64,000 nucleotides of DNA from an uncultured Oscillospiraceae bacterium (GTDB lineage Bacteria > Bacillota > Clostridia > Christensenellales > CAG-314): the NCBI GenBank assembly GCA_964521735.1, contig CAZFTO010000004.1:8566-72565 (forward strand), read 5' to 3'. Under the pieces are notes generated by a model, which saw nothing but the letters and a program-made list of their open reading frames with translations, was not told the origin of the DNA and searched no databases. The position numbers and the translations under genes were made by a program. Positions 14,807-19,360 of the stretch are shown in pieces. Positions within the stretch are counted from its first letter, which is position 1. The number at the start of each line of letters is the position of its first letter.

Positions 14807-15859
14807 ATGAAAAAAATCGTAAAAAATCAAAAATTAATATTCGGAGACGGCAACGTTTCGGTGCAATCCATGACGAATTTGCCGGTTACGGACGTGGACG
14901 CAACCTGCCTGCAAATAAAAAACTTGGTTGCAAGCGGGTGTGACGTGGTGCGCATTGCTGTTCCCAACCAAAAGGCAGCGCAGGCGTTTGGCCACGTTCG
15001 CAATCAATTTCCCTCGCTACCATTGGTTGCTGATATCCACTTCGACTATCGTTTGGCGTTGGCTTCGATGGATGCCGGCGCGGATAAAATTCGCATAAAT
15101 CCCGGCAACGTGCCCGAATGGCAACTTAACGAAGTTATCGCCGCCGCAAAAGCCAACAACACAATTGTGCGTATTGGCGTAAACAGCGGATCTGTCAACA
15201 AACAATATTTGCAAGAAAACGATGGGGATAAGTGCAAAGCGCTTATTGCCAGTTTGCAAAACTACGTCAAATATTTCGAGGATAAAAATTTCACGAATTT
15301 GGTGCTGTCCGTCAAAAGCAGCGACGTGCGCGAAACGGTTCGGCTAAACCGTCTTACTTCGCAGCTTGGGTATCCGTTGCATCTAGGTGTAACGGAAGCC
15401 GGCCCAGAGGAGACGGGCTTGGTGAAAAATTGCATAGGTATTGGCAGTTTGCTGCTGGATGGTATTGGCGATACCATACGCGTTTCGTTGACGGCCGATC
15501 CCGTTCGTGAAGTTGTTGCCGGACTTAACATTTTGCGATCCATCGGTTTGCGAAAGGGCGTAACATTCGTGTCTTGTCCGCAGTGCGGCAGATGCAGCAT
15601 AAATTTGGAAGAAGTTGCCAAAGAAATTTACGAGCTAACAAAAAACGTGACGGCGCCGCTAAAAATAGCCGTTATGGGTTGCGAAGTTAATGGACCGGGT
15701 GAATGTTCCGATGCCGATTTGGGCATAGCCGGCGCCAACGGAAAAATGGTTTTGTTCCGCAAGGGACAAAAATTCAAAGTGGTGGATGCTTCTTGCGGCG
15801 TGCAAGAATTCTACCGTGAGTTTTGCACGCTAGTGGAAGAATACCAAAAACAAAACTAA
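14807..15859 (+). CDS. ispG: 4-hydroxy-3-methylbut-2-enyl diphosphate synthase (flavodoxin)
   Basis: VADIHFDYRLA, RINPGN, CPQCGRC and MGCEVNGPGE. Confidence 0.95.
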   Translation: MKKIVKNQKLIFGDGNVSVQSMTNLPVTDVDATCLQIKNLVASGCDVVRIAVPNQKAAQAFGHVRNQFPSLPLVADIHFDYRLALASMDAGADKIRINPGNVPEWQLNEVIAAAKANNTIVRIGVNSGSVNKQYLQENDGDKCKALIASLQNYVKYFEDKNFTNLVLSVKSSDVRETVRLNRLTSQLGYPLHLGVTEAGPEETGLVKNCIGIGSLLLDGIGDTIRVSLTADPVREVVAGLNILRSIGLRKGVTFVSCPQCGRCSINLEEVAKEIYELTKNVTAPLKIAVMGCEVNGPGECSDADLGIAGANGKMVLFRKGQKFKVVDASCGVQEFYREFCTLVEEYQKQN

Positions 15860-15871
15860 TTGTGGTGAAAC

Positions 15872-17512
15872 ATGATAATTGACGCACTCAACGAAAAATT
15901 CCCGCAAATGCCCGATTTGCGCGTGCGGGATATAAAGGTGGATAAGGACTCACGCAAAATTTATTGTGCCGTGAGCTATCCCGATGCGCCAAACTTATCG
16001 TCCGAAGTGGTTTCTCAGATAAAAACGGTTGTCGTTTCAACTTTCCCCAAAGGCTATCGCTACGATGTGCGTGTCGTCAACGACCGCTTCAACGAAAAAA
16101 GCTTTGCTTCGTTGCTTTTGGACGTTGTCAAAAAAAGATATCCGCTTTTTGCAAACCTAAAAAGCGATTGCTTGACGGTAAAACTAACGGGTCGTTGCAT
16201 CGTGGCAACTTTTGGTGTTAGCGAAACCACGTTACTAAACATGAAGTCGGCCAACTTTTTGTCGGAAATGAGCAAGTTTTTTGCATCGTATACTTGCTAC
16301 GACGTGCAAATTTTGGCAAACGTTGTGCAATCGGCGCACGAAGCAGATATTGCTGCGCAGGAACGATTGGTTCAACTGGCCATCAACAAAGAATTGCTAA
16401 AACCGCAACGCTATTTCAACGTTTTCGACGTGCAAAAGTGCATTGGCAAGGAAATTCCCACAAAGCCAATGTACGTTTCGGACGTGCGTTCGGCAATGGA
16501 AAACTGCGTTTTGTGTGGGAGAATTTCCGAAAAACAAATTCGCGACGTAAAAAACAATCCATCGTTGAAACTTTGCAAGTTCAACTTGACGGACGATAGC
16601 GGTGCAACCATTCCGTGTGTTACCTTCGTGCGGTTGCAAATTGACGATTTCGAAACATTGAAGCAAACGGTTGCCGACAAAACGGATGCGGAAATAATGA
16701 CAATGAGCCGCACCCGCCGTCTTTCCAACGAAAAGAAACTTAAGCTTTTTGAATTTTTGTATAACGGGCAAGAAGTTTTGTTGCGCGGAAAGGTTGCTTA
16801 TAGCGATTTTTCGCAGCGTTTGGAACTGCACTGGTACGATTTGAACAAGTGCCGCATTCAGCCGCTAAGTTCACAGCCTGTTTTCAAAAGTCAAACGCCG
16901 CAGCACTACGTGCTAGTCAGCCCAACCAAGCTAACAGAATATCGTCAAATGTCTTTTGCGCAGCTAGAAGAAAAGCCTTCCATGCTAAGCGGCAAGGATT
17001 GTGTCGTGCTGTATGCAAACACTACCGGCTATTCCGTCACGAAAGATAAAATCTACAATTTGTGCGGTGTAAAACTTACCAACGGACATCTAAGCGAAAA
17101 GTTTTCCACCTTCGTTTCGCCGGAAATTTCCCTAACCGACCAACAACTGAGCACTGCCGGCGCCACCGTTCGTTCGCTTTCCGGCAGTCCAACTTTGACG
17201 GAAATAATAGGCGATTTGTATAAGTTCGTGGGCAATGCCACTTTGGTGGGTAACGAAATTCCGAAATTGTTGGAACTGCTTAACTACTATGCTGCGCCGT
17301 TGGGCTATTCTTTCGAAAACCAAACTATGGCCTCGGCCGATTTGCTTTCGGCCCTGTTCGATGCAAGCGATTGCGACACAAAACCCAACTGCTTTGTGCT
17401 GGCCGATGTTGCCAAAGCCTTGAAGATGGATTGCAAACTGTCCGAAAGTGCCGAAGATCTTGCCGTTGCCGTTGCTACGTTTGCTTCACGCTTGGTTCAA
17501 CGCGCTCGCTAG
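15872..17512 (+). CDS. PolC-like N-terminal/OB-fold protein with a degenerate DnaQ-like exonuclease domain; no PHP or polymerase domains
   Basis: It occupies the ispG-[polC]-rimP slot. The segment IGKEIPTKPMYVSDV...CVLCGRISEKQIRDVKNNPSLKLCKFNLTDDSGATIPCVTFVR...EVLLRGKV parallels the PolC OB domain. The C-terminal part aligns to the PolC exonuclease, but DVETTG is replaced by YANTTG, HNASFD by GNEIPKL, and the H-x4-D histidine is missing. Confidence 0.6.
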   Translation: MIIDALNEKFPQMPDLRVRDIKVDKDSRKIYCAVSYPDAPNLSSEVVSQIKTVVVSTFPKGYRYDVRVVNDRFNEKSFASLLLDVVKKRYPLFANLKSDCLTVKLTGRCIVATFGVSETTLLNMKSANFLSEMSKFFASYTCYDVQILANVVQSAHEADIAAQERLVQLAINKELLKPQRYFNVFDVQKCIGKEIPTKPMYVSDVRSAMENCVLCGRISEKQIRDVKNNPSLKLCKFNLTDDSGATIPCVTFVRLQIDDFETLKQTVADKTDAEIMTMSRTRRLSNEKKLKLFEFLYNGQEVLLRGKVAYSDFSQRLELHWYDLNKCRIQPLSSQPVFKSQTPQHYVLVSPTKLTEYRQMSFAQLEEKPSMLSGKDCVVLYANTTGYSVTKDKIYNLCGVKLTNGHLSEKFSTFVSPEISLTDQQLSTAGATVRSLSGSPTLTEIIGDLYKFVGNATLVGNEIPKLLELLNYYAAPLGYSFENQTMASADLLSALFDASDCDTKPNCFVLADVAKALKMDCKLSESAEDLAVAVATFASRLVQRAR

Positions 17513-17629
17513 CGTGCATTTTGGTGGCATTTGCAATTATCAATTTTCGTTCGAAGAATTCGTCATTGCAGTTTTGCTGCAAAAATGGATAATAAATATA
17601 TAATAATATAGATTATTTTAAAAAAACCG

Positions 17630-17658
17630 TTGTCAAAGACGGTTTAGTGTGGTATACT
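17630..17658 (+). promoter_or_regulatory. sigma-A promoter of the rimP-nusA-infB operon
   Basis: TTGTCA, a 17 nt spacer, then TGgTATACT (extended -10). Confidence 0.6.
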
Positions 17659-17707
17659 AATAGCACACGGATATGCGTGGTGTATGCAAGAAACTTAATT
17701 ATTCGTA

Positions 17708-17787
17708 CACTCACCGCACGTCCTTCGCCTAGTTGAATTATTTTTGCTACGGTGAGAGTGGAGTTTTTTCTCCACTCTCAATTTTTT
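17708..17787 (+). promoter_or_regulatory. leader attenuator with alternative antiterminator and terminator structures ahead of rimP
   Basis: The terminator is tgagagtggag-tttttt-ctccactctca followed by attttttt (17753-17787). The upstream cactcaccg (17708-17716) can pair with cggtgagagtg (17750-17760), which sequesters the 5' arm of the terminator. Confidence 0.55.
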
Positions 17788-17803
17788 GGGAAAGGAGCGC
17801 AAA

Positions 17804-18259
17804 ATGGGTAAAGTTGCCGATCAGGTTTTGCAACTGGTGCAACCAATAGCAGAATCGATGAATTTGCACGTGTTGGAAGTGCTTTACGAAAAAAAATTTG
17901 ACGGAATGAATTTAACCGTCGTAATCGATAAGGAAGGCGGCGTAACAATTAACGACTGCGAAGCATTGCATCGTGCCATCGATCAGCCGCTGGACGAACT
18001 TGATCCCATCGACGTTGCCTACACGCTAAACGTTTCCTCTCCCGGCTTGGATAGGCCGCTAAAATTGGAGTGGGACTACAAGCGCAATCTCGGCAAAAAA
18101 ATCACCGTGAAATTGTATAAGCCGCTGGACGGCAAAAAAACATTCAACGGCGTGTTGGATAGCTACGATGAAAGCTCGTTCGTATTGGATACGGGCAGCA
18201 AAAAAATAACTTTTATAAAAAAAGAAACGGCGCAGGTTTTGCCGATTATTGAATTCTAG
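17804..18259 (+). CDS. rimP: ribosome maturation factor RimP
   Basis: The ATG follows an AAAGGAG RBS. It contains LNVSSPGLDRPLK and lies upstream of nusA. Confidence 0.92.
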   Translation: MGKVADQVLQLVQPIAESMNLHVLEVLYEKKFDGMNLTVVIDKEGGVTINDCEALHRAIDQPLDELDPIDVAYTLNVSSPGLDRPLKLEWDYKRNLGKKITVKLYKPLDGKKTFNGVLDSYDESSFVLDTGSKKITFIKKETAQVLPIIEF

Positions 18260-18271
18260 GAGGAAACAAAA

Positions 18272-19360
18272 ATGACCAGTAAAGAGTTTTTTCTTGCTCT
18301 TGACGAATTGGAAAAAGAAAAGGGTATTGCCAAAGAAAAGGTGATGGAAAGTGTCGAAACGGCTCTTGCCATTGCTTGCAAAAAGAATTTCGGCGAAGCG
18401 TCGAAAGTGGTTGTAAAAGCCAATCCCGAAAAATTCACTTTCCGTGCATATATTTGCAAAACCGTCGTAGAAACTGTGGAACTTCCCGAAAACGAAATTT
18501 CACTTGTCGATGCACGCGAAATCAAAAAATCCTATAAAATCGGCGACGAAGTGCTTACGGAAATCGATCCTCGCACTTTTGGCAGAATTGCCGCGCAAAA
18601 CGCTCGTCAGGTTATCATCAACAGTTTGCATCAAGCAGAAAAAGACGTAACCTACAATCAATTTGCCGATAGAGAAAGCGAACTTATCGTTGGCGTTGTC
18701 ACCCGCATCAAGGACGATGGCACAATTTTTGTTGAAATCGGCAAAAACCAAATGGAAGGCATTTTGAGCGTTCAAGAACAAATCCCCGGTGAAAAATTCC
18801 ACGTTGGTGACAGAATCAAAGTGCTTGTAAAGCGCGTTCGCGATAGCGTTGGTGGAACGCAAGTGGCACTTTCCAGAGCTAGCTACGTGTTCATCAAGCG
18901 TTTGTTCGAAAACGAAGTTCCCGAAATTCGTGCGGATATCGTCCAAATCAAGAGCATCGTGCGTGAAGCAGGCTTCCGCACCAAAATTGCCGTGTATTCC
19001 ACTGATCCGGAAATTGATGCAGTGGGTGCATGCGTAGGCAACAAGGGCGCTCGCGTTAACGCTATCGTTTCGGAAATTGGCGGCGAAAAGATTGATATCA
19101 TTCCTTGGAGCAGCGACATTTTGGATTACATCGCTCGTGCACTTTCCCCTGCAAAGGTGCTAATTGTGCAAGCCGATGAAGACAAAAAGGAAGCAAAAGT
19201 TATTGTTCCGGACGAAAAACTTTCGTTGGCAATTGGCAAGGAAGGCCAAAACGCTCGTTTGGCCGCTCGTTTAACGGGTTGGAAGATAGACGTCAAGTCC
19301 TATTCCACGGCAATGGCTAGCGGAATGTTCGATGAAGCCGGCGTTACAGACGGAGAATAA
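18272..19360 (+). CDS. nusA: transcription termination/antitermination factor NusA
   Basis: 362 aa with an S1 domain followed by two KH domains (ACVGNKGARVNAI, IGKEGQNARLAARLTGWKIDV). Confidence 0.96.
   Translation: MTSKEFFLALDELEKEKGIAKEKVMESVETALAIACKKNFGEASKVVVKANPEKFTFRAYICKTVVETVELPENEISLVDAREIKKSYKIGDEVLTEIDPRTFGRIAAQNARQVIINSLHQAEKDVTYNQFADRESELIVGVVTRIKDDGTIFVEIGKNQMEGILSVQEQIPGEKFHVGDRIKVLVKRVRDSVGGTQVALSRASYVFIKRLFENEVPEIRADIVQIKSIVREAGFRTKIAVYSTDPEIDAVGACVGNKGARVNAIVSEIGGEKIDIIPWSSDILDYIARALSPAKVLIVQADEDKKEAKVIVPDEKLSLAIGKEGQNARLAARLTGWKIDVKSYSTAMASGMFDEAGVTDGE

Follow-up and report, generated by a model that had tools for sequence, protein, structure and literature searches.

The window analyzed here, a 64,000-nucleotide stretch of contig CAZFTO010000004.1 in whose positions all coordinates are given, comes from a metagenome-assembled genome (MAG) of 1.49 Mb, 62 contigs and 93.9% completeness, belonging to Candidatus Fimimonas (GTDB genus CAG-1435, family CAG-314, order Christensenellales; record titles and Gilroy et al., PMC8035907). 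Its plus strand carries an ATG-started open reading frame (ORF) of 546 amino acids (aa) plus stop. NCBIfam models identify uppS, cdsA, dxr, rseP and ispG upstream of this ORF and rimP, nusA and infB downstream, so that the ORF, lying between ispG and rimP-nusA, occupies the exact position usual for the DNA polymerase gene polC in clostridia; the polC of relatives at the same position encodes ~1400 aa. An earlier interpretation made from the letters of the window alone (the sequence-only reading) had proposed that a truncated, catalytically dead PolC-like protein fills the conserved polC slot, and the neighboring genes, the domain homology and the catalytic alignment columns described below confirm that proposal. 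The peptides that it quoted are all present in the translation, namely IGKEIPTKPMYVSDV from residue 191, YANTTG at 381-386, GNEIPKL at 460-466 and SESAEDLAVAVA at 524-535. The features of the locus are listed in Table 1.

Table 1. Features of the polC slot in the window. NTD, N-terminal domain; Exo, exonuclease domain.
Feature	Position	Strand	Basis
ispG, upstream neighbor and marker of the polC slot	14807..15859	+	NCBIfam NF001540, 389 bits versus cut-off 345; order-wide synteny
PolC remnant (NTD-OB-linker-dead Exo)	15872..17512	+	Homologs of 39-96% identity in 25/25 genomes of the genus
NTD, aa 1-172; two alpha/beta subdomains, homolog of the PolC-specific NTD	15872..16387	+	hhalign; secondary structure of the model
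OB-fold domain, aa 177-333; PolC OB homolog	16400..16870	+	Foldseek 3f2b; PF01336
Genus-specific helical OB insertion, ~32-42 aa, aa 255-296	16634..16759	+	Alignment of 43 short forms and PolCs; helices H260-266 and H272-294
Linker, aa 334-372, mostly coil; replaces N-terminal half of the PolC PHP domain	16871..16987	+	Alignment; pLDDT 65-85
Weakened QxxLF clamp-binding-like motif, Q359-M-S-F-A363	16946..16960	+	Q in 73/73; genus Q-x-[SN]-[FL]-x
DnaQ/PolC-type 3'-5' exonuclease fold without catalytic residues, aa 373-546	16988..17509	+	NCBIfam PolC and DnaQ models; Foldseek; catalytic columns
ExoI remnant YANTTG (D>Y381, E>N383)	17012..17029	+	E>N in 63/66 genus members
ExoII remnant GNEIPKL (H>N461, N>E462, D>L466)	17249..17269	+	D>L or I in 58/66
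ExoIII remnant SESAEDLAV (H>E526, D>L530)	17441..17467	+	Alignment columns
Intergenic spacer, 273 bp, without polC remnant	17513..17785	+	tblastn; promoter scan; Rfam
Downstream neighbors rimP (17786-18259) and nusA (18272-19360)	17786..19360	+	NCBIfam

At the sequence level the homology to PolC is weak. Searched alone against Pfam, the protein matched no family and returned only a spurious sub-threshold hit to FGGY_N, while the NCBIfam PolC model aligned to it over model positions 414-509, the exonuclease (Exo) region, with E=4e-13. The whole-protein PolC cut-offs were missed by a wide margin (47.8 bits versus 873, and 36 bits versus 1043), and a sequence search of the PDB yielded E. faecium PolC (9qpc) with E=1e-3. 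Structure and profile methods, which the sequence-only reading had suggested as a check, make the homology solid. An AlphaFold2 model built from 68 homologs had a mean pLDDT of 87 and a pTM of 0.51, the latter value suggesting flexibly linked domains, and its best Foldseek match in the PDB, with E=3e-13 over 441 columns, was full-length E. faecium PolC (9qpc). The middle of the protein, previously assigned to the PolC OB fold, superimposed on the corresponding region of G. kaustophilus PolC (3f2b) with an rmsd of 1.6 Å over 126 columns, and PF01336, the OB family of PolC, was found in 32 of the 68 family members. The C-terminal domain, likewise assigned correctly to the PolC/DnaQ exonuclease fold, matched DnaQ, epsilon, the T. 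maritima PolC exonuclease and RNase T in Foldseek (target-normalized TM-score, TMt, 0.6-0.73). To these matches may be added the N-terminal domain (NTD), for which profiles built separately from same-order PolCs and from the short relatives of the window protein described below (the short forms) aligned in hhalign at 97.3% (E=2.6e-11, 136 columns). All three domains are PolC-derived. The PolC NTD is not resolved in the cryo-EM structures of the E. faecium enzyme and was removed to obtain the G. kaustophilus crystal structure. Because it is disordered in the known structures (PMC12592400), the 172-residue NTD of the window protein has no solved counterpart.

The protein stops right after its Exo domain, and no PHP, palm/fingers or HhH region was found in it. 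Alignment with PolCs revealed neither the HxH...D nor the DHG motif of the PHP domain, a linker of ~39 aa standing where the N-terminal PHP half would be. Both PHP halves, palm, thumb, fingers and HhH of PolC are thus missing by alignment, the PF07733 polymerase core was without a Pfam match, and whole-genome tblastn led to the same result, confirming what had been read from the letters.

The state of the active site was assessed in an alignment of the Exo domain of the window ORF with those of 13 same-order PolCs and 25 short forms of other lineages. The losses in ExoI, ExoII and ExoIII that the sequence-only reading had reported were all recovered, the catalytic residues having changed as follows: D>Y381, E>N383, H>N461, N>E462, D>L466, H>E526 and D>L530. 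All five DEDDh positions are replaced in the window protein (Y381, N383, L466, E526 and L530), and they are lost in 66 of 66 sequences of the genus. PF00929 did not match the window protein and TIGR00573 scored it at 26.7 bits versus a family cut-off of 71.5. An enzyme of the DEDDh class can hold its two metal ions only with all four acidic ligands in place; with those ligands gone, the two-metal site cannot form and the Exo domain is catalytically dead. It could be argued that the protein is still a nuclease, or some other enzyme, whose active site has been rebuilt, since some replacements are conserved (N383 in 63 of 66 sequences) and D392 and D448 are invariant. D392 and D448, however, are conserved in the active forms as well, at non-catalytic positions, and other replaced positions vary freely in the genus, the ExoIII histidine having become V, A, N, E, T or D and the ExoIII aspartate T, V, K, L and others. 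Such freedom is not what a rebuilt site would show; together with the requirement of DEDDh chemistry for its acidic ligands, it renders an enzyme of this kind very unlikely.

The genome of the window encodes a single C-family polymerase; its frame of 1189 aa on contig C8 passes the NF005298 model for DnaE-type Pol III alpha (1328.6 versus 1260 bits). A tblastn search of the whole genome with two full PolCs retrieved only this DnaE, at ~23% identity, and within the ORF its Exo part. The genome-wide search that had been recommended for polC and dnaE thus yielded one DnaE and no full-length polC, and the DNA downstream of the ORF is free of polC remnants, as the sequence-only reading had stated. 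The ORF is the positional ortholog of polC and its only remnant in a genome without full-length PolC, not a paralog or a duplicate. PolC was found in none of 25 Fimimonas genomes and in none of ~200 genomes carrying a short form; in the wider clade, exactly one full-length DnaE-type polymerase was present in each of one closed genome and six genomes of 3-9 contigs. G286, the closed genome, also contains an open frame of 315 aa whose match to the polymerase-core model is confined to the first ~109 model positions. These counts bear on another possibility raised from the sequence, that of a split polC, and on its technical variant, an assembly artefact in which the polymerase part lies elsewhere or was lost in binning. 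That the window genome is a MAG of 62 contigs and 93.9% completeness might favor either. Yet ispG, the ORF and rimP are all covered by independent gut metagenome contigs, among them one of 8.2 kb that stems from another study; these contigs differ from the window locus by 18 substitutions and no indels, and the ORF stop codon and the junction to rimP are identical in them. Misassembly is therefore contradicted by independent assemblies, and with PolC missing throughout the genus and the short-form genomes, a single full-length DnaE in the closed and near-closed genomes and no remnants by tblastn, a split or artefactual polC is so improbable that we reject it.

The dead Exo domain has not been released from selection. 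The ~546-aa protein is present in all 25 sampled Fimimonas genomes, and ~66 homologs, the most distant of them at 39% identity, have an uninterrupted frame of 526-558 aa, with 18 invariant and ~65 nearly invariant alignment columns. The survey of dN/dS (the ratio of non-synonymous to synonymous substitution rates) proposed earlier was carried out with the Nei-Gojobori method on the two closest pairs, pairs below ~76% identity being saturated (dS nan or >1.5). The first pair gave a ratio of 0.05 (dS 0.45; NTD 0.05, OB 0.03, Exo 0.08) and the second 0.13 (Exo 0.13). Of the 18 substitutions that separate the independent contigs from the window locus, 16 fall inside the ORF, 11 of them synonymous and five non-synonymous. 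The whole protein, including the dead Exo domain, is under strong purifying selection. A pseudogene or decaying remnant whose frame has stayed open by chance would explain the loss of all catalytic residues and the weak sequence-level matches to known families, but it is hard to reconcile with low dN/dS in every domain, the intact frame and conserved columns of the homologs, or the mostly synonymous, indel-free variation among natural strains, and we regard it as highly improbable. The decaying duplicate considered by the sequence-only reading is accordingly rejected, and its other proposal, an evolved non-catalytic PolC paralog, holds as regards the absence of catalysis and the presence of selection but not as regards paralogy.

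The truncation extends far beyond Fimimonas. Among 401 genomes of the order, full PolC was detected in 190 and not in the remaining 211, consistently within families; PolC is missing from 183 of 346 high-quality genomes and from 80 of 173 genera. Searches with a short-form profile gave a bimodal result, 16 families matching over the full length in frames of ~500-560 aa with E ≤ 1e-60, versus 1e-22 to 1e-53 for the PolC families. At 40 loci of the order, a short form or polC directly follows ispG and usually precedes rimP-nusA-infB. The window protein shares the features of the short forms: an NTD-OB-linker-Exo architecture within ~500-560 aa, residence in the polC slot, and a genome in which DnaE is the sole C-family polymerase. 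Together the short forms make up an unnamed family, relatives being annotated as 'hypothetical protein'. To trace their origin, a maximum-likelihood tree was computed from seven neighboring markers (2790 columns, 43 genomes, unrooted). One branch (SH-aLRT 100) set all short-form genomes apart from the PolC genomes, a single change between PolC and short form suffices on this tree, and none of 500 label shuffles equaled this. The truncation is of single origin, ancient and common to about half of the Christensenellales. Outside the order, 281 of 288 high-quality clostridial genomes have PolC, a count that disposes of the idea that PolC loss is common across Clostridia. Of the seven exceptions, one is a contig-edge fragment, three belong to one genus with PolC-like frames of ~1090 aa, and three have a DnaE-type match only, one of these with an additional 415-aa Exo ORF. 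Given the near-universal presence of PolC outside the order and its placement at the root or base of the Firmicutes in the literature (PMC11040001, PMC3919608), the direction of the change was taken to be loss.

The short forms of other lineages look very different at the active site. DEDDh is intact in every one outside Fimimonas, i.e. in 15 further families and, within CAG-314, in four further genera, and PolC is the best model for their Exo domains (172-195 bits). The linker before the Exo domain has an invariant glutamine, present in each of the 73 short forms, and in the joint alignment 23 of 25 non-Fimimonas representatives display the pattern Q-x-x-[LIMF]-[FL] at this point (QADLF, QTSLF, QLDLF, QSNIF, QANLF); the other two comprise one QMSAF, seen in a separate alignment, and one misaligned sequence. 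The consensus of the beta-clamp-binding pentapeptide is QL[SD]LF. The DnaE of the window genome has its own such motif, QMSIF, at the usual internal site, and the alpha and epsilon subunits of E. coli bind beta2 at the same time, each with a clamp-binding motif of its own (PMC3664792). On the strength of the linker motif and of their PolC ancestry, the active short forms are most likely epsilon-like, clamp-tethered, PolC-derived proofreaders that act in trans.

Loss of catalysis is specific to Fimimonas among the short forms. In the marker tree the genus is nested within CAG-314 as the sister of two genera with intact active sites, and the stem branch of its Exo domain measures 1.2 substitutions per site, the other internal branches 0.05-0.25. 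Its Exo domains are 26-29% identical to those of the sister genera, versus 44-53% among active Exo domains, at comparable marker-protein identities (53-57% between Fimimonas and its sisters, 48-61% among the active forms). The burst of change in the Exo domain, followed by strong purifying selection, indicates a change of function, not decay. Two further alterations accompany it. The linker of the window protein reads QMSFA in a coil, its glutamine and fourth position fitting the clamp motif and its fifth not, and the genus as a whole has Q-[MLI..]-[SNT]-[FL]-[AVT..]. The OB domain has gained the helical insertion listed in Table 1, with dN/dS of 0.00-0.06 in close pairs. Five OB cysteines (C212, C215, C235, C249 and C327; positions 16505-16852, aa 212-327) are also invariant or nearly so in the genus, C212 being genus-specific; a metal site or a buried cluster could account for them.

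All nine metal-binding positions of the DnaE PHP domain match those of the Taq and M. tuberculosis DnaE1 enzymes in alignment, and a published survey generally rates the PHP domain of clostridial DnaE1 as active (PMC12926913). From these residues we infer that the DnaE PHP domain is active and would carry out proofreading in Fimimonas. A stand-alone DnaQ was considered as the proofreader of the window genome and found no support. The only other DEDD domain there is the N-terminus of a 741-aa fusion (contig C7:24987-27209) in which an intact DEDDh exonuclease (FDIEA..., HNSEDDA) is joined to a hexokinase/ROK-like C-terminal part (DAGGTNFR). Stand-alone DnaQ-like ORFs of ~190-250 aa do occur in 13 or 14 of the 25 Fimimonas genomes, scoring at most 147 bits against the PolC Exo region; examples are G018:C16:17392-17886 and G006:C5:28348-28878.

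Taken as a whole, the data lend themselves to the following scenario. In the common ancestor of a large Christensenellales clade, polC lost its PHP domain and its entire polymerase (palm, thumb, fingers and HhH), leaving NTD, OB, linker and Exo in the ancestral position between ispG and rimP, and DnaE as the sole C-family polymerase in replication. In almost all of the clade the remnant, keeping DEDDh and QxxLF, would serve as a clamp-tethered proofreading subunit in trans, as epsilon does in E. coli. In Fimimonas the five catalytic positions were replaced during the Exo burst, the OB insertion was gained and the linker motif weakened, and strong purifying selection has followed; redundancy with the DnaE PHP domain, to which proofreading would be left, plausibly allowed the Exo site to die. 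The Fimimonas protein might engage template single-stranded DNA (ssDNA) through its OB domain, the beta clamp through its linker and the clamp loader through its NTD, a contact that has been proposed for the PolC NTD (PMC3919608), while its Exo fold could dock on DnaE or on the primer end. We therefore favor, with moderate confidence, a non-catalytic accessory of the replisome whose domains would have retained their binding roles. The data establish the domain homology, the loss of the catalytic residues, the absence of PolC, the single origin and the purifying selection, while binding to the clamp and the clamp loader, a role in the replisome and proofreading by PHP are predicted.

Function might, on the other hand, have moved outside the replisome altogether, to that of an ssDNA- or RNA-binding regulator or of a repair or recombination accessory, for instance, in which case the slot would be of historical significance only. 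The burst of Exo change, the genus-specific OB insertion, the weakened linker motif and the nearly invariant cysteines new to the OB domain would fit such a move, and collectively they indicate a change of function instead of simple retention. Against it stand the preserved NTD, OB fold and invariant linker glutamine, the position of the gene beside the rimP-nusA-infB housekeeping block in all members, and the lack of any new domain or partner gene. We consider a role outside the replisome rather unlikely, although clearly less so than the other alternatives discussed above.

Several points weigh against the replisome-accessory interpretation or limit its reach. The replisome interactions of the window protein are predictions, and the activity of the PHP domain is deduced from conserved residues alone. 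The fifth motif position is no longer F or L in Fimimonas, and clamp binding there may be weak or lost; a short linear motif, moreover, arises easily by chance, and what speaks for this one is conservation at a single aligned position. In the 13-14 genomes that have it, the stand-alone DnaQ-like gene could be the real proofreader. The marker tree is unrooted, so that the direction from PolC to short form rests on Clostridia outside the order and on the literature. All genomes are MAGs of uncultured bacteria, and a search of sequencing runs for expression returned DNA metagenomes only, no search restricted to RNA having been made.

How the window protein departs from known systems is best seen by comparison with PolC itself (E. 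faecium 9qpc, G. kaustophilus 3f2b; NF001688 / TIGR01405). The two share the slot between ispG and rimP-nusA, and their NTD, OB and Exo fold are homologous and identically ordered; PolC is both the best Foldseek match and the top NCBIfam model. PolC has in addition ~900 residues that include the PHP domain, palm, thumb, fingers, clamp-binding region and HhH; its Exo domain is inserted in the PHP domain, unlike that of the window protein, which also lacks DEDDh. The other Christensenellales short forms are orthologous to the window protein, with the same architecture, slot, single origin and invariant linker glutamine, but they retain DEDDh and a canonical QxxLF, the first of which is lost and the second weakened in Fimimonas, where an OB insertion of ~32 aa has been gained.

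E. coli epsilon (DnaQ) is likewise a DnaQ-fold module separate from a DnaE-type polymerase. It too has a clamp-binding-type motif beside its Exo domain (PMC3664792), placed after Exo in epsilon and before it in the short forms, and it too plays a structural role, in the core-clamp complex. Epsilon differs in being active, in having neither NTD nor OB, in binding the PHP domain of alpha through a C-terminal tail and in its independent evolutionary origin. That the Exo and polymerase modules of PolC are separable in evolution in this class is also evident from the Exo-less PolC variants that occur in Clostridia and in Negativicutes (Timinskas et al. 2014, PMC3919608), which represent the reciprocal case: there the polymerase was kept and Exo lost, whereas here the polymerase was lost and the Exo fold kept. 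Finally, inactivated DnaQ-like domains of Pol I orthologs, PolA2 and PolB2 (PMC12926913) also keep the DEDD fold structurally after loss of the ligands, but they are still fused to an active polymerase, unlike the window protein.

Published surveys recognize three replicase set-ups only, DnaE1 alone, PolC with DnaE1 and PolC with DnaE3, and assign Clostridia to PolC with DnaE1 (PMC3919608, PMC12926913). Our literature search found no paper on PolC-less Bacillota with a remnant of this kind, and loss of the PolC polymerase in a large Christensenellales clade is apparently unreported. That a large, abundant clade of gut Clostridia has dispensed with the PolC polymerase while retaining its front half bears on how replisomes are classified. 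Tentatively, and as a possibility that we hold with less confidence than the accessory role itself, this clade of at least 16 GTDB families might be described as DnaE-only with the N-terminal half of PolC as a clamp-tethered subunit, a convergent counterpart of the alpha-epsilon pair, which in Fimimonas would have become a pseudo-enzyme that is still needed. If so, the essential role of the subunit would be architectural, the coupling of DnaE, beta clamp, clamp loader and template, and not proofreading. Full PolC, active short form and dead short form constitute a natural series that makes testable the roles of the PolC NTD and OB domain, whether any proofreading subunit is essential for non-catalytic reasons and whether gene-strand bias truly depends on PolC. 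These commensals should be without a target for PolC-directed antibiotics, ibezapolstat (PMC12592400) among them.

With regard to strand bias, ~76% of 897 ORFs lie on the locally G-rich strand in the 23 contigs of at least 20 kb of the window genome, and single contigs show 84-100% gene co-orientation. Bias thus seems high despite the loss of PolC, the estimate being crude and in part circular because gene orientation itself adds to the skew.

The spacer between the ORF and rimP had been credited with a promoter and a rimP leader. Neither could be established: a promoter-like site at 17630-17658 is at chance level (three sites found versus 3.1 expected in shuffled sequence), and an Rfam scan for the leader returned no family, its sole match being DicF at chance level (E=0.3). 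A strong terminator-like hairpin of 11 pairs followed by a T-run (17753-17780) ends 6 nucleotides before the start of rimP at 17786 and could be a candidate leader attenuator of the rimP-nusA operon, one without an Rfam match.

Further observations were made in the course of the survey. NCBI taxonomy misplaces Candidatus Fimimonas under Myxococcaceae, in conflict with GTDB and the paper that described the genus, and several MAGs (L027-L029, L037 and L046 among the records) are labeled 'Corallococcus sp.'. Two copies of the short form with the same score occur in one MAG, G006 (C2:79567-81204 and C23:7073-8710; CAZHUH01, records L030 and L064), reflecting either a real duplication or redundant binning, contamination being 5%. 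In family f33 (L083 and L089; genomes of 0.8-1.2 Mb, 98-100% complete) the short form lies between rseP and rimP in a locus devoid of dxr and ispG. The Christensenellales families f26 and f39 have neither PolC nor a short form of ~520 aa but Exo ORFs of 450-466 or ~200 aa (e.g. G049:C10:171861-172388 and G062:C2:46662-47216) together with DnaE, and may represent a further stage of reduction. In another order of Clostridia, all three genomes of genus g230 (G484, G511 and G635; e.g. G635:C38:10243-12132) are without a standard PolC. Their frames, of ~1090 aa in G484 and G635 and 819 aa in G511, match PolC at ~587-738, the frame of G635 alone also being shown to match PolC 22-421. The g230 frames skip the Exo region and look like Exo-less PolC, the reciprocal of the case described here.

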